Below are positions 12,677-34,866 of a DNA stretch of 35,954 bases, one piece after another. The position numbers and the translations under genes are program-made. Source of the DNA: an uncultured Eubacteriales bacterium (lineage in GTDB: Bacteria; Acidobacteriota; Aminicenantia; Aminicenantales; UBA8522); assembly GCA_964550915.1 (NCBI GenBank), contig CAZKBY010000002.1, positions 1 through 35,954 on the forward strand, in the 5' to 3' direction. The notes below the pieces were generated by a model. That model was not told the origin of the DNA. It worked only from the letters and a program-made list of their open reading frames with translations, and made no database searches. Every line of letters begins with the position of its first letter. Position 1 is the stretch's first letter.

Positions 12677-12706
12677 TTGACAGCGCCGCTTGAGTTTTTT
12701 CATACT
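12677..12706 (+). promoter_or_regulatory. Candidate promoter giving a leaderless start at ATG 12714
   Basis: TTGACA (12677-12682), 18 nt, CATACT (12701-12706). ATG 12714 lies 7 nt downstream of the -10. No SD before any candidate start. Confidence 0.35.
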
Positions 12707-12713
12707 CATGGCA

Positions 12714-20436: not shown

Positions 20437-20501
20437 CGGGAAAGTATGATGGCAGAAACGCTCCCCCCAGTCAAACAGCGGGAATGTCCGTTGGTGCCGC
20501 C

Positions 20502-20530
20502 TTGACTTTTCACCCCAAGTAAAGTAATTT
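20502..20530 (+). promoter_or_regulatory. Candidate sigma70 promoter for tatA
   Basis: TTGACT (20502-20507), 17 nt, TAATTT (20525-20530). Predicts a ~65-nt leader. Confidence 0.45.
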
Positions 20531-20601
20531 TTGCCTGTAGGATCGACAATATTTGGGCCCATTGAGGAGGCCCTGCGGAGAACTCCTCAAAGGAGGTTTC
20601 C

Positions 20602-20805
20602 ATGTTTTTATTCGGACCGATCGGCCCGACTGAGCTCCTGCTTATCCTTCTCATCGTTGTCATCATCTTCGGCGCCCGCCGCCTGCCCGAGCTCGGAAAA
20701 TCCCTGGGCGAAGGCATCAAGAATTTCCGCAAGTCAATGAGCGGCAAGGACAAAGACGCGGGGTCCAATTCTGAAAAGCCACAGCCCCCGGCCAAGGAAG
20801 AATGA
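20602..20805 (+). CDS. tatA: Twin-arginine translocase subunit TatA/E
   Basis: 67 aa, [54 protein letters not shown] 5 nt upstream. Confidence 0.9.
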
Positions 20806-21905
20806 GACGGACGCTCGAAAAGCTGGCCGAGGAACGTCAGGAAAAAGAAAAAGCGTTCGCCCTCAAACTTGAAGAGATAAGAAAAAAGATTCATTCCCTC
20901 GACCAAGCTGCGGGCTTCCCTCGCTTCAAGAAACGCCGCCCGGACGCGGCCTCTGCCCGCGATCTTCTGGAAGATCTCATGGACCTGATCGACTTTCAGT
21001 CTTCGCTTATGGACGCGAGAGACAGAGAATGGGACGCATTAGGGAGTAACCATGTCGGGATGATTTTCAAGAGCATGGAATGGCGCGTCGAAAAGCTCGC
21101 CGCTCTGTATGAGGACGTCAAGGCGCTGATGAAAACGTTCCTCCTCCTTAGGGAGAAGCTCAGCAGGCTCCTTACCGTCCTTGAGGAAAAGAGGCTGCCC
21201 GAGGCAACGGCGGTTAAGGAAATCATTGAGCCCCTTGAAGACTGGCGTTATGCCGGGTTTGAAAACCGCTTCCGCGGCTCTGCCGAAGAGGTTAAGCATC
21301 AGCTCGAAGTTTATGTCTCTTATTTCCCTAAGGGAGGGAAGGTCATCGATCTGGGCTGCGGCCGGGGCGAATTCCTCGAACTTCTCCGCAAAAACGGAGT
21401 TGCGGCTGAGGGAATCGACATCAACAGCCAGATGGTCGAGGCCTGCCTGGACAAGGGTCTGCTCTGCCATAAAGCTGACCTCTTAGAAGCATTATCTGAA
21501 TGGGAAGATGGATCCCTGGACGGAATTTTCTCTTCCCAGGTCATCGAGCACCTGACGCCATCTTATCTAAAAAGCCTGGTCGAGCTCTCCTATCGGAAGC
21601 TCGTTTCTTCAGGCACTCTCATCTGGGAAACCATCAACCCTGTTTCCGTCTTTGCCCTGGTCGAGATCTACTACCTCTACCTCTCCCACCAGAAGCCCGT
21701 CCATCCCCAGGCGATCAAATTCCTGTTAGAAGCCGCGGGATTCGAGGACATCGAGATCAAGTATTTTATGAGCCTGGACAGAGAAAAGCTCAAGAATCTC
21801 CCCGGAGCCGATGAGCGCACGTCCATCCTCAACGAAAATATCGACAGACTGAACGAGCTTCTCTTTGCACCCCCGAATTACGCTGTTATCGCCAGGAGAA
21901 AATAA
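20802..21905 (+). CDS. Class I SAM-dependent methyltransferase with N-terminal coiled-coil region
   Basis: Motif [16 protein letters not shown] and [12 protein letters not shown] (Methyltransf_11-like). ATGA overlap with the tatA stop. Confidence 0.85.
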
Positions 21906-21907
21906 TC

Positions 21908-22831
21908 ATGCCGCTTTATGCTGGGTTTGACCTCGGCGGAACTCAGGTTAAGTACGGCCTGCTCGATGAAGGGCACGCCCTTGTTTTCAGGGACAAGAAG
22001 CCAACGCCGCCCGGCATCAAAGACATGTTGAAGCTCTTTGCCGAAATCTGGGAGGAATTGAAAAAACAAGAGAAAACGAAAATTATAGCCGTCGGGTTTG
22101 GCATCCCCGGCATCTTCAGCCTGAGGGAGCAGAAAATCATTCAATCACCCAACGTTCCTGCGCTCGATGGGTTCGACCTCCGCCCCGCTCTCGGCCGCTT
22201 CATCGACATCCCCTTCTGGCTTGATAACGATGCCAATATGGCCGCTTATGGCGAGTTCAAAGCAGGCGCGGGCAGGGGCGTTCAGAACTTGATCCACCTC
22301 ACCCTTGGCACAGGCGTTGGCTCGGGTATCATTATCGACGGAGAGCTGCTCCACGGGATGTGCGGCTTCGCGGCCGAAATGGGCCATCTCGTGGTCAACC
22401 CAGAAGGAGAAAGATGCAATTGCGGGTCGCGTGGTTGCCTGGAGACGGAGGCTGCGGCCGGGCCGATCATCCGGAACTACCGAAAGCTGGCCGAAACGCG
22501 GCAGCCCCTCACCGCCGAGGAAATCGCCGAAAAAGCCCGCCGCGGAGATGCCAGCGCCAGGCGGGCCTATGAGATGGCCGGCACTTATTTAGGCATCGCT
22601 CTCGGCTCGGCCATCAACCTGCTCAATCCGGAAAAAATCCTCCTCGGCGGCGGGATAATGGAAAGCGGCGATCTCCTTCTTCCCCGGGCTATCGAGGAAG
22701 CCCGGTTTCGGTCCTACAAAGCATCTTTTGCCTGCTCGTCTATCGAAAAGGCCAGCCTGGGTAATGACGCCGGCCTTATCGGCGCTGCCTCCTGGGCAAT
22801 GGAACAATTAAAAAGAAGAACATCTCTATAA
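21908..22831 (+). CDS. ROK family sugar kinase (glucokinase-like)
   Basis: AGFDLGGTQVKYGL ATP-binding motif, DNDANMAAYGE, and the ROK zinc motif GHLVVNPEGERCNCGSRGCLE. Confidence 0.9.
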   Translation: MPLYAGFDLGGTQVKYGLLDEGHALVFRDKKPTPPGIKDMLKLFAEIWEELKKQEKTKIIAVGFGIPGIFSLREQKIIQSPNVPALDGFDLRPALGRFIDIPFWLDNDANMAAYGEFKAGAGRGVQNLIHLTLGTGVGSGIIIDGELLHGMCGFAAEMGHLVVNPEGERCNCGSRGCLETEAAAGPIIRNYRKLAETRQPLTAEEIAEKARRGDASARRAYEMAGTYLGIALGSAINLLNPEKILLGGGIMESGDLLLPRAIEEARFRSYKASFACSSIEKASLGNDAGLIGAASWAMEQLKRRTSL

Positions 22832-22852
22832 AAGGACTGATTGAAGAAAGGA

Positions 22853-22882
22853 GGGGACGGTTTCTTTTTGGAAAGCGTCCCC
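22853..22882 (-). terminator. Hairpin terminator downstream of tRNA-Leu
   Basis: GGGGACG / CGTCCCC 7-bp stem with a 16-nt loop. On the minus strand it is followed by TCCTTTCTT. It sits between the ROK stop and the tRNA 3' end. Confidence 0.45.
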
Positions 22883-22887
22883 AGACA

Positions 22888-22971
22888 TGCGGAAGGAGGG
22901 ACTCGAACCCTCACGGCCTTGCGGCCATAAACTCCTGAGGCTTACGCGTCTACCGATTCCGCCACTTCCGC
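22888..22971 (-). tRNA. tRNA-Leu, anticodon CAG (type II, long variable arm); CCA not encoded
   Basis: Hand-folded from the reverse complement. Acceptor GCGGAAG/CTTCCGC, D arm GCG-GAATCGGTAGA-CGC, anticodon stem TAAGC/GTTTA. Loop CUCAGGA with U33 and G37. Variable arm GGCC-GCAA-GGCC. T arm GAGGG-TTCGAGT-CCCTC. 84 nt. Confidence 0.9.
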
Positions 22972-22989
22972 ACGAGCGCAAGCAGTTCT

Positions 22990-22995
22990 ATTATA
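22990..22995 (-). promoter_or_regulatory. Perfect -10 box (TATAAT on the minus strand) 19 nt upstream of tRNA-Leu position 1
   Basis: The plus strand reads attata at 22990-22995. No convincing -35; a G8 run (minus strand) lies just upstream. Confidence 0.35.
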
Positions 22996-23035
22996 GCCAT
23001 CCCCCCCCTAAAAATAAAGAATTCCAAGAGTTAAG

Positions 23036-24682
23036 CTACCATCTCATGATGATTAGGGCCCAGAGGGAGACGGGTTTGCGAACCGCCGGCTGGGCGTTTG
23101 TGCTGGCCTTGAAAAGTTCGCCTTCCTTCTCGAGCTCAGTGCGGACAGCCTTGTCATAATAAACAGGGAGGTCGAGGAACAAGCCGACGGTGAGCTTCTT
23201 CCCGGCCATCAGTCCGAATGTCCCGCCAAGCCATGATTCTCTCAGGAAGTTCTCCCGCTCGGCACTCTTCACAAAACGATAGATATCACCGTCCGCGACA
23301 TTGTCGCCGTAGAACCTCCTGGTCCAGGAAAAAACCTGATGGCTCCAAACATCCAGGCTCAAGAGCAAATCCCATGTTTCGAGGAGTGGCATCTCCAGGT
23401 CAGCCTCCGCGAAGTTGATGAAGGTGAAGGCGTTGCCGTAGCTCGACCGCTCCCAGCTCGTCTCCCAGCCGAAATTGGCCCAGCCGGGCGCATGGACCTC
23501 CTGTTTTCCCCAAGTCTCTCTGTAGTCGTAGTCTTTCCAAAAAAAGCTTGCCGAAGTGCCGATGCGGAAAAACCCGCCCCTATCCAGGCTAAAATGGATG
23601 ATAGGCAAAAACTCAACCGCATAGGCGTTTTCCCGGTAGAAATCCAGAAGCTCTGTCCCTTCAGTTAGGTAGCGCTGTTTAAGAAAATCTCCCTCGCCCA
23701 CAACGCAGCACAGAAAGTCGGCGTTTCTGAAAGCGAGGATTTTAAAAAGGTTAGAAGAGCGGAGGATCGTTTTACCGGTTTTTTTCTCGTACGAGTTTTG
23801 GATGTAATTATTCTGACTCGCCGAATACCTGAACTCATCCCCGTATTCGTTGACCTGGCGGAAGCGAAAGCCTATCTTGTGGTCTTTGACATCAGCACCG
23901 AGGACAACATCAAGTTGAGAAGCTTCTGATCGAGTGTAGGCATCCTGCCAGAAAGCGTCGATATTCGTTTTTGTGCCGAAGATGTGGTTGCAGCCCTGCA
24001 CGGTTGACCAACCCCAGTTGTACCTGTTCAGGCGCATCTCCTGGCCCTCCTTGACATACTGGAGATAGCCGCTTGGCCTCCCTTCGCGCAAAGACTTATA
24101 ATTGACGATCACCCCGACCGGAGTCCGTTTAATATGGAAGGAGGCGAGAAAAGCCAAAGACACCTCTCTGTTTTTCTGGTCGAGCTCGGAAGAAAAAGGG
24201 ATGAGCGAAGCGGGCATCTCGTAGGGAACAGCCTGACCGGAAGAGCAAAGACTAAAAGTGTCCATTTTCGCCGAGAGAAGCGGCACAATACGGATCGACT
24301 TAAATTCGAAGACGTACGGCGCTGTCATGACCTCGGGCGACACCCAGCTACCTTCGAAACCGGCCCGGGCATTCATTCCCTCTGCCAGATTTCCCTCGAC
24401 TGACTCCTGTGTATTGACGTAAGTGGGGCTGGGCGAGATCTCCGGCATGTCGAGATGGCCCATCCAGCCCCTCGTCCTGAAGTAAAAGAAAGAGAAGCTT
24501 GAATGAAGGCTAAAAAGCTGCGAATCCTGGGGAAAAGTCAAGAATGAGTAGTAAGGGTTGGGGCCGACGAAGCGGAGCCTGGCCTGGAGGCCGGAAACAG
24601 CGATAAGGCAGAGAAGGACGGCCACAGTCACTTCTGGCCAGCCTGCCGTTCTCTTATGGCTTTTGATCCTGTCTTTTTTCAT
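23036..24682 (-). CDS. Putative outer-membrane beta-barrel protein (548 aa)
   Basis: Signal peptide VTVAVLLCLIAVSGLQA. Long runs of alternating hydrophobic/polar, aromatic-rich sequence. C-terminal ...LWALIIMRW ends in an aromatic residue as in OMPs. RBS GAGGAG upstream. No family recognised. Confidence 0.7.
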   Translation of the reverse strand: MKKDRIKSHKRTAGWPEVTVAVLLCLIAVSGLQARLRFVGPNPYYSFLTFPQDSQLFSLHSSFSFFYFRTRGWMGHLDMPEISPSPTYVNTQESVEGNLAEGMNARAGFEGSWVSPEVMTAPYVFEFKSIRIVPLLSAKMDTFSLCSSGQAVPYEMPASLIPFSSELDQKNREVSLAFLASFHIKRTPVGVIVNYKSLREGRPSGYLQYVKEGQEMRLNRYNWGWSTVQGCNHIFGTKTNIDAFWQDAYTRSEASQLDVVLGADVKDHKIGFRFRQVNEYGDEFRYSASQNNYIQNSYEKKTGKTILRSSNLFKILAFRNADFLCCVVGEGDFLKQRYLTEGTELLDFYRENAYAVEFLPIIHFSLDRGGFFRIGTSASFFWKDYDYRETWGKQEVHAPGWANFGWETSWERSSYGNAFTFINFAEADLEMPLLETWDLLLSLDVWSHQVFSWTRRFYGDNVADGDIYRFVKSAERENFLRESWLGGTFGLMAGKKLTVGLFLDLPVYYDKAVRTELEKEGELFKASTNAQPAVRKPVSLWALIIMRW

Positions 24683-24856
24683 CTTCCTTGATCTCCTCTA
24701 TCTAATGTTATCTCAATTATTTAGTCGTGGCTGTCATGAACTGTGCAGGCTGGCGCTCTGCGAGAACATACTGGCTGCGGTTTCCGTTTTTCCCAGCCTG
24801 AGGCCGACGCTTTAGCTGAAGAACTTTGCTGCCATCCTTTGGAAGCATCTTCTACT

Positions 24857-25005
24857 ATGTGATTTTTATGATGGGTGCAGGGGGCTGCCCTGAAGCCCCC
24901 GTAGCGAAGGGGGGACCCATCGGTTTTCCCGATGGGGAAACCGACGGGACCGGTTCCCCGGGGCGCGGGGCCAAAGGGCAGCTTCCTGCACCCTATTGAA
25001 TCACA
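24857..25005. other. GC-rich nested inverted-repeat element (candidate structured RNA; family and strand unknown)
   Basis: Three coaxial closing helices: ATGTGATT/AATCACAT (24857-64 / 24998-25005), GGGTGCAGG/CCTGCACCC (24872-80 / 24984-92), GCTGCCC/GGGCAGC (24883-89 / 24975-81). They enclose at least three local hairpins: CCCCC-8-GGGGG, CCCATCGG-5-CCGATGGG, CCCCG-5-CGGGG. Confidence 0.4.
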
Positions 25006-25028
25006 TAAATAAAGATGTTTAGTCGTCC

Positions 25029-25057
25029 TTGACATTTCTTGAGTCGTAATTTACGCT
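25029..25057 (+). promoter_or_regulatory. Candidate promoter giving a near-leaderless start at ATG 25066
   Basis: TTGACA (25029-25034), 17 nt, TACGCT (25052-25057). The ATG is 8 nt downstream. No SD. Confidence 0.35.
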
Positions 25058-25065
25058 TGCTCACG

Positions 25066-26256
25066 ATGGTTAGATGCGAATTCAAGGTCAAAAGCAGGCA
25101 AACCGTGAAGCGCGTTATAACACTCTTGGTTATCGGGGCTTCTTTTATCGTTATTTTAAGCGCCTTGATTTTTGCCCTGGCGCTCCACGCCCGCCAGGCC
25201 AGCGGAACACCGCTTGTCTTCCGCAGCCGCGTCGTCTTCGACCAGCAGGGGCTCGGCCTTGAGGCTTTCCGTCTCCTTGTCCCAAAGGACTGGGTCTTTA
25301 ACGGCGGTGTTACCTGGAACTTCGCCAAGTCTCCGCCCGAAGCGTTCATCATCTATACAGTCACCAGCCCCGACGGGAAATCGGCCATCCAGTCGTTTCC
25401 CCACCTGAACATGTATTGGTCGCAAGATCCCCAGCATCAACATTCCTTCGCTCAGATGGGAAGCACGATCCTGCAGCCCCTGGATGCGATCAATTTCCTC
25501 CAGGGCCTCTTCATCCCCCAGGTCAGGCAGGGTGTGAGCGACCTAAAAGTCATTGAAACGCAGCCTCTTCCAGCCGCGGCCCGGCAAGCCCTGGCCGAGA
25601 ACAACCTCATGCTCAACATCTTCGGCCAGATATCGCCGTTCACGTTTCCCTACGAGACCCGGTCCGACGCCGGCCGGGTCAAGGTCGAGTACACCCAGAA
25701 CGGCCGCCTGATGATCGAGGACTTCACGGCCGTCATCACCTACTTCATCGCCAATACGCCGACATTGTCCGGGATGTATGCCCAGGGCATAAGCTGGTCG
25801 CCCACTATCTGCAGCTTCCGCGCCCCGGCCGAGGAGATGCCGGCCAAGATCCGGCAATTCCAGATTGCCCTTTATTCTCGCTTCATCAACCCCGTCTGGA
25901 GCGTTAGCTACACGAGGCTTTGCGCCGTCGTAACGCGCGAGCATCTTCGCCAGCAGCAGGCGATCTTCGCTCGCTACCAGCAGATCCGGAAAACCCTCCA
26001 GGAGTGCAATGACATCATTTGGCAGACCTACCAGAACCGCAGCGCCGCCGAGGACCGGATGTTCGACAACTATTCGCAGGCTTTGCGCGGCGTTGACACC
26101 TATGTGGACCCGGTCAATAACTGGAACGTCGATCTCCCGACGGGGTACGACAATGCCTGGACGAACGGCACGGATTACATCTTCAGCGACAGCCCGAGCT
26201 TCAATCCGAACGTGAGCTTGACAGGAAACTGGCAGAAGATGACACGCAAGCAATAG
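25066..26256 (+). CDS. Membrane-anchored periplasmic hypothetical protein
   Basis: N-terminal anchor VITLLVIGASFIVILSALIFALAL followed by ~350 aa of mixed composition with no recognised motif. Start moved from the track's TTG 25039 to the in-frame ATG 25066. The antisense ORF 25543-26352 is judged a shadow. Confidence 0.7.
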   Translation: MVRCEFKVKSRQTVKRVITLLVIGASFIVILSALIFALALHARQASGTPLVFRSRVVFDQQGLGLEAFRLLVPKDWVFNGGVTWNFAKSPPEAFIIYTVTSPDGKSAIQSFPHLNMYWSQDPQHQHSFAQMGSTILQPLDAINFLQGLFIPQVRQGVSDLKVIETQPLPAAARQALAENNLMLNIFGQISPFTFPYETRSDAGRVKVEYTQNGRLMIEDFTAVITYFIANTPTLSGMYAQGISWSPTICSFRAPAEEMPAKIRQFQIALYSRFINPVWSVSYTRLCAVVTREHLRQQQAIFARYQQIRKTLQECNDIIWQTYQNRSAAEDRMFDNYSQALRGVDTYVDPVNNWNVDLPTGYDNAWTNGTDYIFSDSPSFNPNVSLTGNWQKMTRKQ

Positions 26257-26287
26257 AGAAGAAGACAGGATCAATTGCGAGATTGCG

Positions 26288-26701
26288 ATGACAACGAAAC
26301 AGATGCTCATAACGTATCTTATCGCCCTGGCCATCTTTTTTTTAATCGACATGATCTGGCTGGGTGTCGTGGCCAGGGGATTCTACCGGCGGCACCTCTT
26401 GCCGGTGCTCAGCCCCAAAGTGAATTGGGGGGCTGCCCTGCTTTTTTACTTTCTCTTCATCGTCGGCCTGCTCGTCTTCGTCATCAAGCCGGCCTTGATC
26501 GCCGGGGAACCGCTCAGAGCCCTTTTCTTCGGCGCCCTTTTTGGCCTGATCAGTTATGCCACTTATGATCTGAGCAACCTGGCCACGCTGAAAGACTGGC
26601 CTATCGTCGTAACGGTTGTGGACCTCATCTGGGGCAGCGTCCTCGGCGGCACGGTTTCCTTCGTCAGCGCCGTTCTCGGCTGCCACGTTCCGAAGCTCTG
26701 A
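26288..26701 (+). CDS. Small integral membrane protein, DUF2177-like
   Basis: 137 aa with four TM segments. FLIDMIWLGVVARGFY and YATYDLSNLATLKDWP resemble the DUF2177 family as I recall it. Confidence 0.7.
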   Translation: MTTKQMLITYLIALAIFFLIDMIWLGVVARGFYRRHLLPVLSPKVNWGAALLFYFLFIVGLLVFVIKPALIAGEPLRALFFGALFGLISYATYDLSNLATLKDWPIVVTVVDLIWGSVLGGTVSFVSAVLGCHVPKL

Positions 26702-26805
26702 CCCCGGGCGGGAGCAAGCTGGCGTCAATCTCCTTGGCGTTACTTCGATATTTCCTCGCCCGGCCGTTTGATTTTTTTCAATTGTTTTTGTCTGTTAGTT
26801 GAATT

Positions 26806-27306
26806 TTAAAAGTGGACTAGGTTGATGTCATCAAGACGGATTTTCTGAATCCCCAAGAAGTCTCTTTCGCACCAGAAGCGAATCTCAGCTATTCCCTTAT
26901 CTAAATGCGGCACGATGCGGAGTTGGATCGTATCCCGCACCGAGACTCCAGAGAGTTTAAACTCCAGGTTGTGGAATGAGATTTTCCGATAAGGGTTAAC
27001 GATCCTTTCGGTCATCAGGCAAAAGATATCTTTGGTGGACTTGAACGGTGGAGGAATCATGAACTCCCGAAAGAGGGACTTCTTTTCCTCTCGGGCTCTC
27101 TGGAACCGTAGGGAAGGGATCTCTCCTGTGGTGCTATGGACCTGGTGATTGTTATAGCGGTCGACTTCGAAACGGAGGACTTGCCTGGCCTCGGTGATTG
27201 TCTTGATGTTTTCTCGGGCACAGGTTCGGACGAGTCTATCCTGGAGCCAGCCATAAGGCCGTTCGATTTTGCCTTTAGCTTGACAAAAGCGGCTTCTGCT
27301 CTTATC
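26806..27306 (-). pseudogene. 5'-truncated DDE (rve integrase-core) transposase; only the C-terminal ~165 codons remain
   Basis: Hand translation of the minus strand is continuous from just after a TAA at 27307-27309. It reads ...SRFCQAKGKIERPYGWLQDRLVRTCARENIKTITEARQVLRFEVDRYNNHQVHSTTGEIPSLRFQRAREEKKSLFREFMIPPPF...RKISFHNLEFKLSG...IRLDDINLVHF*. AKGKIER is the third catalytic (E) block of rve transposases; the two Asp blocks, the N-terminus and a start codon are missing. The track shows only the internal-Met piece 26806-27060. A possible IS end (TG...) lies near 26789. Confidence 0.8.
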
Positions 27307-27443
27307 TTAAAGGGTGCGTGAAGACGTTTTTCAAACGTTCAAGCCAGGTCGAAAAAGGGAACGTATAAATTAAGGGACATCAAGAAAGAGCGTGCTTTTC
27401 TTCCCGAGTGGCCCGGTTTCAGGGCTAAAATAAAGGAGGTTTG

Positions 27444-28589
27444 ATGAAATTCTCTTCTCGGAAACAGATCCAGGATCTCCTCCGTTTCAAGAGCGATTGT
27501 TTCTTAACGACATCCTTTTTTCTTGACACCGACAAGAGCCGGCTGACCAAAAAAGAAATCTCTGTATCTTTGAAGAACCTGCTCCATCAAGGCCGGACAC
27601 GGCTGGAAACACTCGAAGCCGACAGAAGGAAAAAAGACTCGCTGGCCGAGGATTTGGAAAAAATCAGCCGCTTTGGGACCCAGGTCATGCCAGCCCATAC
27701 AGCTCCCGGGCTGGCACTTTTTTCTTGCGCCGGCGAGAATTTCTGGCAGGAGCTCTCCCTGCCCCGGGCACCGCGCAACCACATCTTCTTTGATCGTGCT
27801 CCCTATGTCCGGCCTCTTTCTTCGATCATGGATGAATACCACCACATCTGTGCTTTTCTCCTGGACCGCCAAATGGCCCGCTGGTACGGCATTTTCATGG
27901 GAGAAATCGTCCTCCTTGAATCTCTGACCAGTGATGTCCCTAGCCGGGTCAGGGAAGGAGGCTGGCAGGGGTACGAATCGAAGCGCATCGAAAGGCACAT
28001 CGACGCCCATCTTCGCGAGCATTTCAAGAGGGCAACCCAAAAAACTTTCGAGCTGTTCAAAAAAGACAGGTTCGACTGGCTTTTTATTGGCTTGAAGGAG
28101 GAGTACCGGCCAGACATCGAGCCCCTCCTCCATCCCTACCTGCGGGAACGCCTGAAAGGCTGGCTCAGAACGAACTCGAATGATTCAGAGGACAAGATTC
28201 TCAAACATTCCATGGAGATCGAAGCGATACTGAAAGCCGAGGAGGAGAAAGCCCTGGTCATGACGCTCGTCACCGAGATTGAAAAGGGAGGCCGCGCCGT
28301 TTCAGGTGTGAGAGATGTCCTCCGGAAGTTGAACGATGCCGAAGTCCAGACTCTGGTCCTGACCCGAAATTTTGCCATCGAAGGAAGGGCCTGTCCCAAA
28401 TGCGGCTTTCTCTATACCGACGAGCTCCGGTGTCCTGTCTGCACCGTTGCAACAGAGAAGGTTCAGGACATCATTCACGAAAGCGTCCATCGAGCCATGG
28501 ACAAAAAGTGCCAGGTCCGTTACATCACGCCGCCCTCGCGGCTCGACCGCTTCGGGAAAATCGGCGCCCTCCTGAGGTTCAAAAGATAA
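27444..28589 (+). CDS. Bacterial eRF1/Pelota/Vms1-superfamily (baeRF1-type) release-factor-like protein with zinc-ribbon insert
   Basis: SRVREGGWQGYESKRIERHIDAHLREHFKRATQKTFELF aligns by eye with the eRF1 M-domain GGQ block ([34 protein letters not shown]). The central and C-terminal blocks GGRAVSGVRDVLRKLNDAEVQTLVL and DRFGKIGALLRF match eRF1 domain C. A CPKCG...CPVC zinc ribbon is present. RBS AAGGAGG. Confidence 0.8.
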   Translation: MKFSSRKQIQDLLRFKSDCFLTTSFFLDTDKSRLTKKEISVSLKNLLHQGRTRLETLEADRRKKDSLAEDLEKISRFGTQVMPAHTAPGLALFSCAGENFWQELSLPRAPRNHIFFDRAPYVRPLSSIMDEYHHICAFLLDRQMARWYGIFMGEIVLLESLTSDVPSRVREGGWQGYESKRIERHIDAHLREHFKRATQKTFELFKKDRFDWLFIGLKEEYRPDIEPLLHPYLRERLKGWLRTNSNDSEDKILKHSMEIEAILKAEEEKALVMTLVTEIEKGGRAVSGVRDVLRKLNDAEVQTLVLTRNFAIEGRACPKCGFLYTDELRCPVCTVATEKVQDIIHESVHRAMDKKCQVRYITPPSRLDRFGKIGALLRFKR

Positions 28590-28593
28590 TTTT

Positions 28594-31500
28594 TTAGGCA
28601 GCCTTCTTAAAAGAGATCTTTTCAAAAAGACTATAAATAATCGGAATAACAAACAGCGTCAGGAAGGTCGTGGCGGCCAGCCCGCCGACCACGGCGATGG
28701 CCATGGGCGCTCTCATCTCAGCCCCTTCAGAAGTGCTTAACGCCATGGGCAACATCCCCAAAATGGTCGTCAGGGCTGTAAGTAGGACGGCTCGCAGACG
28801 GGTCGTCGCCCCCTGGACGACGGCTTCCGCTGCAGCCAGTCCCCGGCGCCTCAGCTGATTGACATAATCGATCATGACGATGCCGTTGTTGACGGCAATA
28901 CCGGCCAGGAGAACAACCCCGATGAGCACGGGCAGGCTGATGGCCCAGCCGCTAACGAGAAGGGCCACGACGACACCGATGATGCCGAGCGGGATCGTGA
29001 ACATGATCACAAAAGGATGACGGAAAGACTCAAACTGCGAAGCCATGACCATGTAGACGAGGAGGGTGGCCAGGGCAAAGGCTCCAGCCAGGATAAGAAA
29101 AGTCTCTTGCATCTGCTCGTAAGCGCCGCCGAATTCAAGGAAGTAGCCTGAAGGAAGCTGTTTTTCGATCGGCGCGATCCGCTTTTTGATGTCCCGCACG
29201 ACGCTTCCGAGGTCGCGGCCAGCGATGTTCGCCGTCACGGAAATGCGGCGCGACTGGCTTTCCCGGGTGATCTGGATGGGCCCTTCTCCTCTGGTGATCG
29301 TTGCGACCTGATTTAAGTAGACGACTTTATTCAGCGGCGTGATAAGGGGTATACGTGCAATCTCGCTCAGGCTGTTTCTGTATTCCTCCCCGAAGCGGAC
29401 CCGGACATCGATCTCTTCGCTTTCCTCCCGGTAGCGGGTGGCCACACGCCCTAGGGTTGCTGTCTGCACGGCGTTGGCGACCTGACTGACCATGAGGCCG
29501 AGCTTGGCCACTCTCTCCCGGTCGACCTTGATCTGATACTCGGGCTTGCCCTGGGACAAGCTGTGCGTCAGGTCCCTCAGCCCCTCGATGTCCTGGATTC
29601 TGGCCACAATGCTGTCGCCGATTTCTTTCATCGTCTCGAGCTCTTTTCCGAAAATTTTGATCTCGACGGGAGCTTGAGCGCCTGTCATCATCTGGCTCAT
29701 GTCTAAAGCTTCGAACTTAACGTTTTCCAGGCGTGGGAGCAGCCGGCGAATTTTTTCGAGGATTTCCATATCACTGAGGCTTCTTTGTTCCCTGTCCACC
29801 AGCCCAACCCAAAGAATTCCTTCGTTTGGGCCAGCGTTGCTAAAGCTCGAGGCCATGTCGGCTGGGTCTTCTTCGGCCGCGGATCCGGCCTGAGCCGTGA
29901 CGATCTTGATCTCTGGCTGCTGGATCATCAAGTTCTCGACGAGCGAGAGCACGCGGTTCGTCTCTTCAAGAGCCGTGCCGATAGGCATTTTAACCTTAAG
30001 GAGGATCATGTCCCGGTCCATGTTCGGCATGAACTCTGTACCCAAAAAGGGTACAATTGCCAGGGAGATGACAAGAATGCCCAGCGCCCCGCCCAGAACC
30101 CACCAGCGACGCTGGAGCGCCCGAGTGAGCCAGCCGCGATAAAGCTCCTTCGCTTTTTCAAACTGAAGGCGTTTTTGAAGGCGGATGCCTTTGGAGTTTG
30201 AGCCGGCCTGCTGGCTTGGGTCGTTCGCCCTCCGGGGCTTAAATAGAAAAGATGAAAGCATGGGTACGATGGTCAGGGCCACAAAGAGAGAAGACAGAAG
30301 AGAGAAAGCAATGGCCAGGGCCAGGCCGCGGGTGAGCTTCCCGGTGATGCCCTGGGCAAAAACGACGGGAAAGAAGACGACGATTGTCGTCAGGGTCGAG
30401 GCGGTGATAGCCATCCCGACTTCTGAGGCGCCCAGGATGGCAGCCTTCTTCCTGTCCTTTCCCTCCTCGATATGGCGGAACGTATTTTCGATGACAACGA
30501 TGGCGTTATCGACGAGCATCCCGACGCCGAGAGTCAAACCTCCGAGTGTCAGCAGATTCAGAGTATACCCGGCCAGGTAGAAAGCGATAAAAGTCGTGAT
30601 GACGGAGAGGGGGATGGCAATGGCGATCGTCAGCGTCGGCCGCCAATTCCTCAGGAAAAGGAAGATGAGGAGAATAGCCAGAATTCCACCCTGGAGAGCA
30701 TTGCTGGCTGTCCGGCCGGCCACCCGGGTGATCATTTTTGCCTGGTCCATGGCGACAAAAAACTCGACGTCGGGCGGCAGGATTCTCTTGATCTCCTCAA
30801 GCTCCTTTTTGACCTCATTGCCGGCGATCGCCGTGTTGGCGCCCGAACGCTTGTTGACGATCAGAAAAACCCCCTTCTGTCTCTGAATCCGGCCGAGGTA
30901 GCGGCTTTCCTTCATCGTGTCCTTGATTTCGGCAATATCGGCAAGGAAGATGGGCTCTCCCGTGGCGGTGTTGCCGATGACCACCCGGCCGATGTCCTGG
31001 AGAGACTCGAACTCGCCCAGCGTCCTGACCAGATAATCAGAGTGGCGCTCGACAAGGTAGCCGGCCGGCAGGTTTACGTTCTCCAGGGCCAGAACAGCCA
31101 GGACGCGGTCGATGGAGAGGTTTCGCGCTTCGAGCGAAGCTTTGTTGATCTCCACTAAGATCTCCCTGACTTCGGTGGAGAAAACCCGGGCCGAAGCAAC
31201 TCCGTCAATCCTTTCCAGCCGGGGAGCCACCTCGTCCTCGATCAATTTTTGGATCTCGGAGGTCGGCCTGTTGCCCGTGATGCCGTAAAAGATGATAGGC
31301 AGTTGGGCTAGGTTGAATTTGACGACCAGCGGATCGCTCGCCTCTGCGGGAAGGTAATTCTCGTACAGGCCGATCTGGTCACGGATATCCTGGGCGGCGA
31401 AATCAAGGTTCGTGCCCCACTCAAACTCGACCGAAATCACCGATGCGCCTTCTTGAGTCGTCGAAGAAACCTTTTTCACACGGTTGACCGAGCTGATGAT

Positions 31501-31707
31501 TTGCTCGACGGGCTTGGTGATGGTCTTCTCGATGTCTTCCGAGGAGGCCCCCCGGTAGGTGGTGATCACGGAAACCGTGGGGTATTCGATGTCGGGGAAG
31601 AAATCCAGGCCCAATCGGGAAAAAGCGATAAAACCAACGACGACCAAGATCATGGCGACCATGGACGTCGTCACGCGGCGATTGACTGAGTATTCTGGAA
31701 GCTTCAT
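28594..31707 (-). CDS. RND efflux transporter permease (AcrB/HAE1-like)
   Basis: 1037 aa with a 12-TM, two-large-loop architecture and a typical start, SVNRRVTTSMVAMILVVVGFIAFSRLGLDFFPDIEYP. Confidence 0.95.
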   Translation of the reverse strand: MKLPEYSVNRRVTTSMVAMILVVVGFIAFSRLGLDFFPDIEYPTVSVITTYRGASSEDIEKTITKPVEQIISSVNRVKKVSSTTQEGASVISVEFEWGTNLDFAAQDIRDQIGLYENYLPAEASDPLVVKFNLAQLPIIFYGITGNRPTSEIQKLIEDEVAPRLERIDGVASARVFSTEVREILVEINKASLEARNLSIDRVLAVLALENVNLPAGYLVERHSDYLVRTLGEFESLQDIGRVVIGNTATGEPIFLADIAEIKDTMKESRYLGRIQRQKGVFLIVNKRSGANTAIAGNEVKKELEEIKRILPPDVEFFVAMDQAKMITRVAGRTASNALQGGILAILLIFLFLRNWRPTLTIAIAIPLSVITTFIAFYLAGYTLNLLTLGGLTLGVGMLVDNAIVVIENTFRHIEEGKDRKKAAILGASEVGMAITASTLTTIVVFFPVVFAQGITGKLTRGLALAIAFSLLSSLFVALTIVPMLSSFLFKPRRANDPSQQAGSNSKGIRLQKRLQFEKAKELYRGWLTRALQRRWWVLGGALGILVISLAIVPFLGTEFMPNMDRDMILLKVKMPIGTALEETNRVLSLVENLMIQQPEIKIVTAQAGSAAEEDPADMASSFSNAGPNEGILWVGLVDREQRSLSDMEILEKIRRLLPRLENVKFEALDMSQMMTGAQAPVEIKIFGKELETMKEIGDSIVARIQDIEGLRDLTHSLSQGKPEYQIKVDRERVAKLGLMVSQVANAVQTATLGRVATRYREESEEIDVRVRFGEEYRNSLSEIARIPLITPLNKVVYLNQVATITRGEGPIQITRESQSRRISVTANIAGRDLGSVVRDIKKRIAPIEKQLPSGYFLEFGGAYEQMQETFLILAGAFALATLLVYMVMASQFESFRHPFVIMFTIPLGIIGVVVALLVSGWAISLPVLIGVVLLAGIAVNNGIVMIDYVNQLRRRGLAAAEAVVQGATTRLRAVLLTALTTILGMLPMALSTSEGAEMRAPMAIAVVGGLAATTFLTLFVIPIIYSLFEKISFKKAA

Positions 31708-32816
31708 GGCTTGACCTCTCCGATGATTTCAACGGCTGCTCCCTCTTCCAAGCCGAAGTTGCCCTCGACGATAACCTCGTCGCCTTCGACCAGGCCGATG
31801 GTGATCTCGACCATCGTTGAGTTTTGAAGGCCCAGAACAACTTCTCGCTTGGCCGCCTTGCCGTCCTCAACGATGAAAACGTATTTATTCGAAAGTATGG
31901 CTTTCTGGGGAACGACGAGGGCATCCTCGTGAGTGCTGATTTCGAGGACGATCTCGCCAAAAGTTCCTGGTCGCAGCACGAGATCCGGGTTGTCAACAGC
32001 GACTTCAATGCCGAATTTCTTGGTCAGCGGATCGGCTGCCAGGTTGACGACATGAATTGTCCCCCGGAACTCCTGTCCCGGAAGGGAAGGCACCCTGAGG
32101 ATGGCCATTTGTCCTTTCTTAATGCGGATAATATCGGACGGCGATATGTCAACACGAATCTTGATCCGCGAGAAATCGACGAGCGTGAGGACGCCGCTTG
32201 CCGCGGAGAATGAACCCATCATCGGGTTGATGACATCCCCGACGTCGGCATTCTTCGAGGCGATGATCCCGCCAAAAGGAGCCTGCATGATGGCTACCTG
32301 AAGATTGTGTCTGGTCAGGTTGACGGCGGCCTGCGCCTGGTCAAGCTGGGCTCTGGAAGCCTCAAAGGCCAGCCGGATCTGTTCAACCTGCTGGTCAGAA
32401 ACCGCTTTTTCCTTGTACAGGCGCTCCATCCGGTCCAGGTTGGTCCGTGAGTCATTGTAGCGGGCCTGGGCCACAGCCAGAGCAGCTTCAGCCTGTTTGA
32501 GCTGAAGCTCGATAGCCTGGGTATCGAGCTCGGCCAGGACCTGACCCTTGGCCACACGATCGCCCTCATTGACGTAGATGCGGGCAATTTTTCCCCCGGT
32601 ATCGGGAGTGATGTTAATTTTCTGCCAGGCTTCGAGAGTTCCCGTGTAGAAGAGTTTCTCCGATATTCTCTGCCTCTGGACTTTGAACACCTTGACCGGC
32701 GCAGCCCCGAAAGTCTCCGCAGCCGCCTCCTCTTTTTTTTGCGGCCGGCAGGACAACAAGGCAGCCATGCCCGCAGATACAACCAACATGATGCTTAAGC
32801 TTTTGAATCGTTTCAT
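31704..32816 (-). CDS. RND efflux periplasmic adaptor (membrane fusion protein), lipoprotein
   Basis: Lipobox AALLSC, coiled-coil hairpin, beta-barrel and MP domains (HlyD_D23-like). Start chosen at ATG 32816 (AAGGAG 6 nt upstream). 4-nt overlap with the RND gene start. Confidence 0.9.
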   Translation of the reverse strand: MKRFKSLSIMLVVSAGMAALLSCRPQKKEEAAAETFGAAPVKVFKVQRQRISEKLFYTGTLEAWQKINITPDTGGKIARIYVNEGDRVAKGQVLAELDTQAIELQLKQAEAALAVAQARYNDSRTNLDRMERLYKEKAVSDQQVEQIRLAFEASRAQLDQAQAAVNLTRHNLQVAIMQAPFGGIIASKNADVGDVINPMMGSFSAASGVLTLVDFSRIKIRVDISPSDIIRIKKGQMAILRVPSLPGQEFRGTIHVVNLAADPLTKKFGIEVAVDNPDLVLRPGTFGEIVLEISTHEDALVVPQKAILSNKYVFIVEDGKAAKREVVLGLQNSTMVEITIGLVEGDEVIVEGNFGLEEGAAVEIIGEVKP

Positions 32817-32839
32817 CTTCATCTCCTTGTTCTTCCGAC

Positions 32840-34180
32840 TCACTCGGACTGTTTCCAACCCTGGCCCATCGCTCTTTCCAATTGGGCCAGAGAAACTGTG
32901 TATTCATACAACGCTTGCGAATAATTGATCCGGGCTTCACTGAGGGCCACCTGGGCCGAGTCAACATCGAGAATGGTGGCCAAGCCTTCGGCGTAATTAA
33001 GCTCGGCCACCCTCACACTCTCCCGGGCCTGTTCAATATTCTTTTCCTGGGAGAGGAGGGACTCCCTGGCCTGATTGAGGGTCAGGACAGCCGATTCCAC
33101 CTCAAACCTGACCCTGTCAATAAGGCCTTTCTCTGTGTGTTCGATCTCCCGGATCATGGCCTCCGATTCGGCAACCTGGGCTGACGCAGAAAAGCCGTTA
33201 AAAACGGGGATGTTCAGGACGAGGTTGAACGAGTAGAAGCTCTGCCAGTTGTCTTTTTTAAAATTGAAGAAATCGGCCCAATAGCTGTAGCTCCCCGAGA
33301 CGGCGAGAGTGGGCAGGATGGCTGCCCGAGCGATCTTCACCATCTCCTGAGCCATCTTTTTCTGGTAATTGACCTGGCTGAGCTCGGGCCTGTTCGCCAG
33401 AGCCTTGGCCAGACTCTCCTCCAGGCTGATCTCGATTGGCTGGTAGGTCATCTCGCCAATGATCTCAACGGGCTGGCTGAGGTCCAGGCCAAGGAGAGTC
33501 TTGAGGTTGAGTTCGGCCACAGCAAGGTTATTCCTGGCCTGGAGGACAGAAGGCTTCAGGTTGGCCACGCGGACTTCAGCCCGCAATAGGTCCAGCCGGG
33601 AAGCAATCCCGACATCGTACATGTTCCTGACATTCTGGGAGAGCTTCTCGGCCAAGCTGAGGGCTTCCTCCGAGACTTCGACGAGCTCCTTGGCCAGCAG
33701 GTAGCCATAATAACCTCTCTTGACGTTGAGGACCGTGTCTTGGCTTGTCTGTCTGACCGATTCCTGGGTGGAGTAAACGTTGTACTTGGCCTGCCTGTAG
33801 CCTGAGGTCAGGCGGCCCCCGGTGAAAAGAGGAAGGGTAAACGACAGGGAGAGCTGGTAATCTTTGGTGAAGTCGATGGCCACTCTCTGCGGCTGACCGC
33901 CGGGGATGAACGAGGGGAACTCAAGGACAAAGACTTTTTCGTCGAGGTTCTGGAGGGCGGAAGCGTTCAGGCTTGGAAAAAACTGGGCAGCCGCCTGCCT
34001 GAGCCTGGATTGGGAAGCCTCAACCCTGTCCTGCGAGGCCAGATAAAAAGGATTCTGGGAAAGAGCCAGGCTGATGCTTTTCTCCAAAGTCAGTGTCAGC
34101 CTCTCTTGAGTGTGGGCGAACGGCCCGGCTGTTAAAATCAGCAGCCAGGTGATTAACGTCACAGCGATCTTTCTCATCAT
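32840..34180 (-). CDS. TolC-like outer membrane efflux protein (OEP family)
   Basis: 446 aa with a signal peptide and two OEP repeats rich in coiled-coil heptads (LTLEKSISLALSQNP..., ...AQLERAMG). The start overlaps the TetR stop (TGATG). Confidence 0.9.
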   Translation of the reverse strand: MMRKIAVTLITWLLILTAGPFAHTQERLTLTLEKSISLALSQNPFYLASQDRVEASQSRLRQAAAQFFPSLNASALQNLDEKVFVLEFPSFIPGGQPQRVAIDFTKDYQLSLSFTLPLFTGGRLTSGYRQAKYNVYSTQESVRQTSQDTVLNVKRGYYGYLLAKELVEVSEEALSLAEKLSQNVRNMYDVGIASRLDLLRAEVRVANLKPSVLQARNNLAVAELNLKTLLGLDLSQPVEIIGEMTYQPIEISLEESLAKALANRPELSQVNYQKKMAQEMVKIARAAILPTLAVSGSYSYWADFFNFKKDNWQSFYSFNLVLNIPVFNGFSASAQVAESEAMIREIEHTEKGLIDRVRFEVESAVLTLNQARESLLSQEKNIEQARESVRVAELNYAEGLATILDVDSAQVALSEARINYSQALYEYTVSLAQLERAMGQGWKQSE

Positions 34181-34866
34181 CAGTCTCCTTTCGCGTTGTC
34201 AGCTCTTTTCTCAAGTCCCTGAAGCATAAAATTATGGATGAAGTCGGCAGCCTTTTGGACACTGTATTCCTTTTCGCGCCAGAAACGAACGTGACAGTAA
34301 CCCCAGATAGCGGCTTCTAAGAAAGTAACGGCCCACCCGACATCCATGTTTCGAAATTCTCCGGAGGCGATGCCCTCTCTCAGGATGTCAGCGACGCTGT
34401 CGAGAATTTCTCTCCGCCTAGCCTTGAGGCGATCGATAAACTGCCTGTCTTTTTTCGAAACCGACTGATTCTCATCACCGACGAGAATTCTCATTTTCTC
34501 CATAAACGACCGACCCATCATTAACATACGAGAAATGTTCTCTTTTTCTTGGTTTGTCCGAAAATAAAATTGAATGCCCCGCTTGAGCTTCTGGCTGGCG
34601 CTGATCTTGAGAGCCTTGATTTTCAGCACCTCGCGGCTGAACTGCTCGAAATGGTTATCCAGGAGTTCAAGGATGAGCTCGCCTTTGCACCGGAAGTAGT
34701 GGTAGAGAGTGGCCTTGGAAAAGGCCGCCTCCCGGGCGACGTCATCCATGGTCATGGCGTCAGTGCCTTTCTCGACGATGACCTTCTCGGCCGCCTTGAG
34801 AATAAGACAGCGGTATTCTTCTCGCCGCCTTTCTTCCCGCTCCCGCCTGATGTCGATTTTTTGCAT
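34180..34866 (-). CDS. TetR/AcrR family transcriptional regulator
   Basis: N-terminal HTH ILKAAEKVIVEKGTDAMTMDDVAREAAFSKATLYHYFRCKGELI. First gene of the efflux operon. Confidence 0.9.
   Translation of the reverse strand: MQKIDIRREREERRREEYRCLILKAAEKVIVEKGTDAMTMDDVAREAAFSKATLYHYFRCKGELILELLDNHFEQFSREVLKIKALKISASQKLKRGIQFYFRTNQEKENISRMLMMGRSFMEKMRILVGDENQSVSKKDRQFIDRLKARRREILDSVADILREGIASGEFRNMDVGWAVTFLEAAIWGYCHVRFWREKEYSVQKAADFIHNFMLQGLEKRADNAKGD

Follow-up and report, generated by a model that had tools for sequence, protein, structure and literature searches.

The window analysed here is a 35,954-nt stretch of DNA (contig CAZKBY010000002.1 of assembly GCA_964550915.1, positions 1 to 35,954) from an uncultured bacterium of the Aminicenantes lineage. 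At positions 27444-28589 its forward strand carries a gene for a 381-amino acid protein with the fold of the archaeo-eukaryotic release factor eRF1 (aeRF1), and this gene, called the baeRF gene below, probably encodes a non-catalytic ribosome hibernation factor of the Balon type that acts in the ribosomal A site. The protein is a member of baeRF_family10 (PF18854), its closest characterised relatives are Msmeg1130 and other Balon proteins, and the Gln in its GGWQG loop is not conserved among its orthologues. The baeRF-1 clade has been known since 2019 and the Balon-type function since 2024; what is new here is a conserved chromosomal orthologue in Aminicenantes. The Balon/baeRF-1 hibernation-factor family is thereby extended to a lineage-wide syntenic orthologue in an uncultured phylum, and the annotation of this gene can be upgraded to probable Balon-family ribosome hibernation factor, in place of 'hypothetical protein' or 'peptide chain release factor subunit 1'.

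Family membership, fold and closest relatives

The Pfam model PF18854 matched the protein over residues 120-260 (model positions 1-142/143) with a score of 65.7 bits against a cutoff of 27.1. Sub-threshold Pfam matches were also obtained for eRF1_3 (23.1 bits, cutoff 25.8), eRF1_2 and acVLRF1 (12.5 bits, cutoff 27.1). The NCBIfam model for aRF1/eRF1, TIGR03676, gave an E value of 1.7e-13 at 50.1 bits, which is below its cutoff of 234.7. The NCBIfam models for ribosome hibernation factors, built around MSMEG_1130, AOC03_06830 (Balon) and Rv2629, all matched below their cutoffs. The scores were E=1.2e-11 and 44.3 bits against 480 for NF052288, E=7.6e-10 and 38.8 bits against 330 for NF052287, and E=4.4e-5 and 22.8 bits against 320 for NF052289. 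These matches are weak; those to the MSMEG_1130 and Balon models were near full length, and that to the Rv2629 model was partial, covering residues 168-307 of the window protein.

A first-pass annotation of this DNA had proposed the aeRF1 relationship, which the Pfam, TIGR03676 and structural matches bear out, and had placed the protein in a computationally defined bacterial family of aeRF1 type; PF18854 is indeed the baeRF-1 clade of Burroughs & Aravind 2019. Two further claims did not survive. The gene is no orphan, as 892 homologues were found at E<=1e-3 in 90%-identity clusters (the top 120 being 59-85% identical and 379-381 aa long), together with 3,508 representative clusters at 50% identity. 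Nor does the family lack biochemical characterisation, for Msmeg1130, studied by cryo-EM and shown to inhibit translation in vitro (PMC10901736), scores 124.6 bits on PF18854, so that this family holds an experimentally characterised member. The Msmeg1130 sequence used for this Pfam test was reconstructed from the family-profile alignment. By the same Pfam search Rv2629 was placed in baeRF_family2. A scan of one genome per species returned 149 relatives, and the best 80 of the 149 were all in Aminicenantes-type metagenome-assembled genomes (MAGs), at 49-85% identity. The survey of related loci was seeded with alignment A1 rather than the diverse alignment A2, which restricted it to the Aminicenantes-type clade; in that clade the protein is a syntenic orthologue across at least 80 genomes.

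To obtain a structural model, AlphaFold2 was run with the 135-sequence alignment A2, which gave a mean predicted local distance difference test score (pLDDT) of 95.3 and a predicted template-modelling score of 0.87. This model replaced an earlier run with 33 close homologues in which the C domain was poor (pLDDT 74.7). The model, Foldseek and the profile matches agree on a three-domain aeRF1 architecture, with an N domain, an RNase-H-like M domain and a Pelota-type C domain that has an insert at the zinc-ribbon (ZnR) site. Profile search and structure prediction, two of the checks that the first-pass annotation had suggested, both recovered the eRF1 fold (PF18854; eRF1, Pelota and Balon by Foldseek). 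The matches in the Protein Data Bank (PDB), with template-modelling (TM) scores, were as follows.

Foldseek, ribosome-bound Balon Msmeg1130 (8v9l_z): E=6.8e-25, TM 0.77/0.78 over the full length, best match
Foldseek, Msmeg1130 chains 8v9l_z and 8v9j_z, top-ranked: TM 0.70-0.78
Foldseek, archaeal aRF1: E=1e-20, TM 0.54
Foldseek, Rv2629 (8v9k): TM 0.66
Foldseek, Psychrobacter urativorans Balon (8rdw/8rd8/8rdv): TM 0.63-0.65
Foldseek, eRF1: TM about 0.5
Foldseek, Pelota/Dom34: E down to 3e-10, TM 0.25-0.42, ranked under all Balon and eRF1 matches
Family profile, Msmeg1130: E=2.2e-36, full length, best match
Family profile, aRF1 (4af1): E=8.9e-30, full length
Family profile, Rv2629: E=1e-20
Family profile, eRF1: E=5e-20
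Family profile, P. urativorans Balon: E=6.7e-15
Family profile, Pelota: E=2.4e-12

The ranking by sequence profile is nearly the same as that by Foldseek. BLASTP of the window protein against Msmeg1130 was barely significant (E=0.002 over 44 aa), so the relationship to Msmeg1130 rests on profile and structure. A phmmer search of the single protein against PDB sequences gave no meaningful match, the best being RecR at E=0.25.

The gene and the parts of its product are laid out as follows, all on the forward strand.

27444-28589: coding sequence, 381 aa, baeRF_family10/Balon-family protein of aeRF1 fold (open reading frame, PF18854, AlphaFold2 model, Foldseek)
27433-27439: Shine-Dalgarno sequence AAGGAGG, 4 nt 5' of the ATG (read from the sequence)
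27277-27443: native upstream region, kept in the closest relative, locus L003 (blastn collinearity resumes at 27277)
27444-27833: N domain, about residues 1-130, Balon-like, without NIKS (N-domain-only profile; aRF1 alignment)
27522-27557: conserved loop LDTDKSRLTKKE, residues 27-38, aligned to the HP-motif loop of Balon (8rd8_B THREHPANDQ)
27834-28223: M domain, about residues 131-260, RNase-H-like (PF18854 over 120-260; AlphaFold2 model)
27957-27971: loop G172-G173-W174-Q175-G176 at the position of the GGQ loop, preceded by E171 and with KRIERHI after it
27984-28001: start of the basic helix, R181-I-E-R-H-I186, invariant in A1 and aligned to QRFARL of aRF1
28224-28586: C domain, about residues 261-381, of eRF1_3/Pelota type (eRF1_3 at 23.1 bits; full-length alignments to Msmeg1130 and aRF1)
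28392-28442: zinc ribbon C317-P-K-C320...C330-P-V-C333, inserted at the site of the Balon beta-hairpin and the aRF1 ZnR
28554-28580: C-terminal signature G-K-I-G-A-L-L-R-F, common to aRF1, eRF1 and Balon (GGxAGILRY/GVAAVLRW)

The open reading frame (ORF) listing begins this frame at TTG 27441. We assign the start to ATG 27444, because the homologues all begin with MKF or MKL and AAGGAGG sits 4 nt before it, which confirms both the coordinates (27444-28589, 381 aa) and the strong ribosome-binding site proposed at first pass. A sigma70-like element, TTGACA-17-TATCTT, at 27280-27308 matches 10 of 12 positions and is a consensus match only. The Rfam scan found no regulatory RNA near the baeRF gene.

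In the PDB, a profile of the N domain alone picked up Msmeg1130 (1.5e-5), P. urativorans Balon (0.035) and no other protein; Pelota was not detected by this search. No conserved NIKS-like motif is found in alignments A1 or A2, and the NIKS of aRF1 (4af1) aligns to a non-conserved EADRRKKDS, as the first-pass annotation had noticed when it described the domain as lacking an eRF1-type NIKS. The loop LDTDKSRLTKKE is among the most conserved stretches, with T29, D30, K31 and K37 invariant or nearly so in A1. It aligns with EHPAND of Balon, at an alignment E value of only 0.035 and with the HP dipeptide absent, and its LDTDKSR segment would by analogy act at the decoding centre.

The C domain, by comparison with its relatives, would be the side that docks a translational GTPase. 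The insertion at the site of Balon's EF-Tu-binding beta-hairpin is present as an intact Cys4 zinc ribbon, confirming the ribbon recognised at first pass. Its Cys columns reach 90% conservation or more in an alignment of 135 diverse members of the family, the two CxxC motifs occur in 113 of 132 representatives, and the ribbon is found in 71 of 78 Aminicenantes orthologues. Unlike Balon's degenerate beta-hairpin, the intact ribbon represents the ancestral aRF1 state (Burroughs & Aravind, PMC6514570).

The comparison with individual known proteins brings out what is shared and what is not. Msmeg1130 of Mycobacterium smegmatis (MSMEG_1130, PDB 8v9j/8v9l, NF052288) has in common with the window protein PF18854 membership, three aeRF1-type domains, the lack of NIKS, a C-domain insertion in the same place and the signature G.xA.LR[FW] at the C terminus. 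It differs in having ERAGQMREQR where the window protein has EGGWQGYESKR, and its C-domain insertion (GTVG-ADGSLYADGEIAPHSHAATKDS) is without cysteines, whereas that of the window protein is an intact CxxC...CxxC ribbon. Balon of P. urativorans (AOC03_06830) shares the fold, and its HP-motif loop aligns with the LDTDKSR loop; its HP dipeptide is absent from the window protein and its beta-hairpin is replaced by the zinc ribbon. Rv2629 of M. tuberculosis resembles the window protein in fold and in its loop AGWNGYG, but it belongs to Pfam family 2 and not family 10. With aRF1 (4af1) and eRF1 the protein shares the three-domain architecture, the Zn-ribbon site and the C-terminal motif, but not NIKS, YxCxxxF or an invariant GGQ, and its TIGR03676 score and TM of about 0.5 set it apart. 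The host bacteria are expected to terminate translation with RF1/RF2.

Balon proteins are the bacterial arm of the aeRF1 superfamily. They share the absence of NIKS with an extended decoding-centre loop (the HP motif), the absence of GGQ, and an insertion in the EF-Tu-binding C domain (Supplementary Fig. 5, PMC10901736). Balon was found in 2024 to lodge in idle ribosomes under stress. It binds in the ribosomal A site, as do Msmeg1130 and Rv2629, and for Balon and Msmeg1130 a complex with EF-Tu was seen as well. Translation in vitro is inhibited by Msmeg1130 and by Rv2629, while cells leaving stationary phase are helped by Balon, whose knockout has a phenotype (Helena-Bueno et al. 2024, PMC10901736). 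By homology with these three proteins, the window protein would enter the A site under stress or in stationary phase, with its expression presumably linked to stress. The N domain would touch the decoding centre through the loop LDTDKSR without reading the mRNA, the M domain would extend to the peptidyl-transferase centre (PTC) by means of its GG-[W/F]-x-G loop and its basic RIERH helix, which is invariant, and the C domain would meet EF-Tu through the zinc-ribbon insertion. The expected outcome is a ribosome that is blocked and protected, with no release of the peptide.

The GGWQG loop and the question of catalysis

The GGWQG loop, the basic helix (RIERH) and the CxxC...CxxC ribbon that the first-pass annotation had picked out are all present in the sequence, and a contiguous GGQ does not occur in the window protein. 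HMMER aligns the Gln of the aRF1 GGQ with W174, the adjacent Gln175 being variable. Judging from the alignment, the RIERHI helix would be the equivalent of the rRNA-contacting helix that follows GGQ. Among 78 species-level Aminicenantes orthologues, at least 49% identical and in the same synteny, the loop reads GGWEG in 40, GGFEG in 17, GGWQG in 11, GGWKG in 9 and GGYEG in 1. G172, G173 and G176 are invariant in Aminicenantes, an aromatic residue (W, F or Y) occupies position 174, and position 175 has Glu in 58 orthologues, Gln in 11 and Lys in 9. Only a minority (14%) have Gln175, all of them among the closest relatives. The conserved features are the Gly-Gly-aromatic turn (in this lineage), G176, the RIERH helix, the zinc ribbon and the C-terminal GxIGALLRF. 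The first-pass annotation had raised peptidyl-tRNA hydrolysis as a possible function, naming a lack of conservation of the Gln among homologues as a finding that would speak to the contrary; this is what the orthologues gave, and a catalytic Gln is not supported. The non-conservation of the Gln argues against catalysis, and the M domain appears to lack a functional GGQ.

Alignments reveal that PF18854 is heterogeneous and contains two loop types. Type A, which includes the window protein, has the loop GG[W/F]xG[Y/L][E/D].[K/R]RIERH, three residues longer than that of type B. The residue after the aromatic in type A can be Y, Q, G, A, E, S, K and others, with 15 different residues among the representatives. 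The GG itself is found in only 36 of 80 type A representatives, with AG in 18 of 80 and SG also occurring. Changing Gly to Ala in a genuine GGQ motif is reported to abolish activity (Frolova 1999, cited in PMC6514570). The loop of Rv2629, a verified A-site binder without catalytic activity, is AGWNGYG and thus of the same loop type as GGWQGYE of the window protein. Type B has the short loop QGGW[S/A]Q.R[F/L]QRH, in which 21 of 22 have GG and the [S/A]-Q pair does not vary, and its scores of 40-42 bits lie above the acVLRF1 cutoff. The two types are alike in Pfam family and overall length, and most type B proteins also have the zinc ribbon; they differ in loop length, in the invariant [S/A]-Q and in the acVLRF1 score, which is 12.5 bits for the window protein. 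Representatives of type B are P0175, P0197, P0205 and P0219, and one named member comes from an Anaerolineae MAG (P0275).

Family 10 had been singled out as retaining a well-conserved Gln and hence as possibly catalytic (Burroughs & Aravind 2019, PMC6514570). The group of the window protein does not show such a Gln; the description belongs to type B with its GGW[S/A]Q. In effect, Pfam family 10 mixes a relaxed-loop, Balon-like group (the window protein and the Msmeg1130 type) with a constrained GGW[S/A]Q group. The type B proteins and not the window protein are the better candidates for catalytically active bacterial peptidyl hydrolases of aeRF1 type, and the split can guide the choice of targets for testing active eRF1-like hydrolases in bacteria. 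Kinship with Vms1, also put forward at first pass, is not supported by the acVLRF1 score. The loop, GG[W/F][E/Q/K]G, is without the tiny-residue-Gln pair of GGxSQ/GxuQ. On these motif and hidden Markov model cutoff tests, Vms1/VLRF1 membership was rejected, as was stop-codon-dependent termination.

Competing explanations

Could the protein nevertheless be an active peptidyl-tRNA hydrolase or rescue factor, whose GG-W-Q-G loop releases nascent chains in the PTC of stalled 70S or 50S particles, as in eRF1, Vms1 and ArfB? The three invariant glycines, the Gln of the window protein itself, the earlier flagging of family 10 as potentially catalytic and the existence of the tight-looped type B as a sister subgroup above the acVLRF1 cutoff all favour such an activity. 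For bacterial release factors, Shaw & Green 2007 (cited in PMC6514570) are reported to have found that the geometry of the GGQ backbone matters more than the side chain of the Gln, so that loss of the Gln alone is no absolute proof of inactivity. Set against this are the dominance of Glu and the presence of Lys at position 175 in close, syntenic orthologues, the variable residue and frequent AG in the wider type A, the additional three residues in the loop, the acVLRF1 score of less than half the cutoff, and the non-catalytic nature of the closest solved relatives, the Balons, with Rv2629 having the same loop type. Taken together, these observations make hydrolysis unlikely. We rate somewhat lower still a non-catalytic factor of the Pelota/Dom34 type, which would bind the empty A site and split the subunits with a GTPase or ATPase partner. 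The superfamily fold is the same, as the Foldseek and profile matches to Pelota show, a conserved catalytic Gln is lacking as in Dom34, and this role was one option proposed for baeRF-1 by Burroughs & Aravind (PMC6514570). The TM scores of 0.25-0.42 to Pelota/Dom34, however, compare poorly with 0.63-0.78 to Balon, and the N-domain profile does not detect Pelota. Bacteria are not known to have the partners ABCE1 and Hbs1, and none is encoded nearby. The characterised members of PF18854, moreover, are hibernation factors (PMC10901736).

Two further explanations draw on the neighbourhood of the gene. In one of them, which we consider very unlikely, the protein protects the ribosome under drugs or stress and works together with the neighbouring efflux pump of the resistance-nodulation-division (RND) type, which is under TetR control, shielding the A site and the PTC while the pump clears a ribosome-targeting compound. 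Of 82 related loci (49-85% identity), 62 have the convergent AcrB-MFP-OEP-TetR operon immediately downstream, Balon overlaps several drug-binding sites, and Balon genes neighbour EmrB, MarC and Smr (PMC10901736). But the tail-to-tail arrangement of the genes precludes co-transcription, the evidence comes from one lineage in which adjacency can be inherited synteny, distant family members are without the pump, and in locus L002 an esterase gene lies between the two. The least probable explanation, and a scarcely credible one, is a translation-targeting conflict or defence effector brought in by a mobile element, a function that the first-pass annotation had also raised. A transposase remnant does lie 150-200 bp upstream, and some baeRF-1 evolution has been tied to biological conflicts (Burroughs & Aravind, PMC6514570). 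A PADLOC scan of the baeRF protein and the two upstream ORFs, on the other hand, gave no matches, no toxin, immunity or sensor partner is present, the gene keeps its place in the chromosome in at least 60 species, and the mobile DNA forms a 2,254-bp insertion of its own, which none of the relatives compared carries. Synteny has already largely refuted this explanation.

A Balon-type hibernation factor remains the reading that we prefer, and several observations weigh against it. The window protein is only about 16% identical to Msmeg1130. It falls outside the three curated Balon equivalog subfamilies and represents a different subfamily, because its NCBIfam scores are far under the equivalog cutoffs. 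The invariant GG and G176 in Aminicenantes make the loop more GGQ-like than those of the solved Balons, and the protein may have some PTC-directed activity. With a ribbon in place of Balon's beta-hairpin, its docking to EF-Tu may differ. Finally, no hpf/raiA neighbour is found in the window or in the Aminicenantes loci, and a gene for hibernation-promoting factor (HPF/S30AE) is the classical partner of Balon/baeRF-1 (PMC6514570, PMC10901736), although such genes or stress genes adjoin Balon genes often and not always.

The residual interest lies at the level of the subgroup, in its retention of the ancestral zinc ribbon together with the GG-aromatic loop. There is a small chance that the zinc-ribbon-keeping GG-[W/F]-x-G subgroup of PF18854 is a mechanistically distinct class and not just another Balon. 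If so, the GG-aromatic loop might insert into the PTC more deeply than the lasso loop of Balon, and it could plug the A-site cleft with its Trp or Phe or keep a backbone-mediated peptidyl-tRNA hydrolysis without the Gln. Likewise, an intact Cys4 ribbon at the EF-Tu-contact site might make the parking of ribosomes sensitive to zinc or redox state. A class of this kind would stand, in evolutionary terms, midway from archaeal aRF1 to the Balons of known structure.

Genomic context and origin of the locus

The first-pass annotation had described the gene as wedged between a 5'-truncated rve transposase and the end of an RND operon, and had concluded that it arrived horizontally. The description of the neighbours holds, with weak support for the rve assignment, and the conclusion does not. 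The features of the neighbourhood are as follows.

28594-34866, reverse strand: convergent RND efflux operon by Pfam, with TetR (34180-34866), outer-membrane efflux protein OEP (32840-34180), membrane fusion protein MFP (31704-32858) and AcrB (28594-31707)
25023-27276: window-specific 2,254-bp insertion, absent from L003 (blastn against L003)
25039-26256, forward strand: 405-aa ORF in the insertion, no Pfam match
26288-26701, forward strand: DUF2177 membrane protein in the insertion
26806 to about 27290, reverse strand: 5'-truncated rve-type transposase remnant in the insertion, C-terminal tail
23036-24682, reverse strand: 548-aa ORF, no Pfam match
22887-22972, reverse strand: tRNA-Leu(CAG), the sole RNA gene that Rfam and ARAGORN find in the window, flanked by the ROK gene and the 548-aa ORF
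12690-15092, forward strand: 800-aa ORF, no Pfam match

By blastn the window is collinear with its closest relative, L003 (85% protein identity), at 19190-25022 and 27277-34587, and the segment between the two blocks is the insertion. The baeRF gene is native, as are the 167 bp upstream of it, and it is the mobile DNA that came in, because collinearity with L003 resumes at 27277. The 405-aa ORF, the DUF2177 gene and the transposase remnant were found in none of the 82 related loci, where AcrB is convergent and directly downstream in 62, and MFP, OEP and TetR are present in 54, 59 and 35, respectively. The baeRF gene has been inherited vertically, and a transposase-bearing cassette was inserted upstream of it. 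Horizontal arrival of the baeRF gene was rejected on the synteny with the RND operon and the collinearity with L003.

The frame of the transposase remnant reads ...QAKGKIERPYGWLQDRL...YNNHQVHSTTGEIP... (also given as QAKGKIERPYGW...YNNHQVHSTTGEIP), which resembles the C-terminal end of a transposase of the rve type. The Pfam match is weak (rve_3, E=0.003, 17.6 bits against a cutoff of 26.5), and only the continuous frame matches; the two small minus-strand ORFs upstream have no Pfam match individually.

The assignment of AcrB is secure (ACR_tran, 873 bits). The stop codons of the baeRF gene (28587-28589) and AcrB (28594-28596) are 4 bp apart in the window; the spacing is 30 bp in L001. The two convergent transcripts would overlap, because a 4-bp gap leaves no room for separate terminators, and a terminator scan between the two genes found nothing convincing.

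A palindromic element of about 180 bp lies at 24843-25020, just before the insertion point. It has nested inverted repeats (24873-24899/24967-24993 and 24843-24864/24999-25020), and an 82%-identical copy of 24866-24993 occurs elsewhere in L003 (1324-1451), which suggests a small mobile element resembling a miniature inverted-repeat transposable element, or a structured repeat. The 548-aa gene adjoins the baeRF gene in no relatives but the closest two, L003 and L004 (73-84% identity); in L003 it is divergent and starts about 290 bp upstream of the baeRF gene. The remaining genes of the window are those of an ordinary chromosome: LepA, an IF-2B/MtnA-family protein, TsaD, ROK, a methyltransferase, a Ser/Thr kinase with TPR repeats, TonB, a GDSL lipase and the tRNA-Leu.

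Outside Aminicenantes the neighbourhoods vary. In one of the four type A loci sampled there, from Candidatus Binatia, the type A gene is operonic with a gene for an S30AE/HPF-domain protein, the partner typical of Balon/baeRF-1, which speaks for the Balon-type reading; the two genes are on one strand. The product in Candidatus Binatia (L083, 4987-5979; L084, 2150-3142) is a 330-aa protein with weak Ribosomal_S30AE (HPF), Sigma70_r4_2 and PhyR-sigma-like matches, encoded 22 bp 5' of the type A gene, and it may be one of the HPF chimeras reported to adjoin Balon genes (bioRxiv 10.1101/2025.11.04.686544). Within the surveyed loci, many MAG records titled 'uncultured Eubacteriales', 'Clostridiales bacterium' or 'Dehalococcoidales' (L003-L082) share the orthologue and the baeRF-RND synteny with Candidatus Aminicenantes records, and the placeholder taxonomy in their titles is probably wrong.

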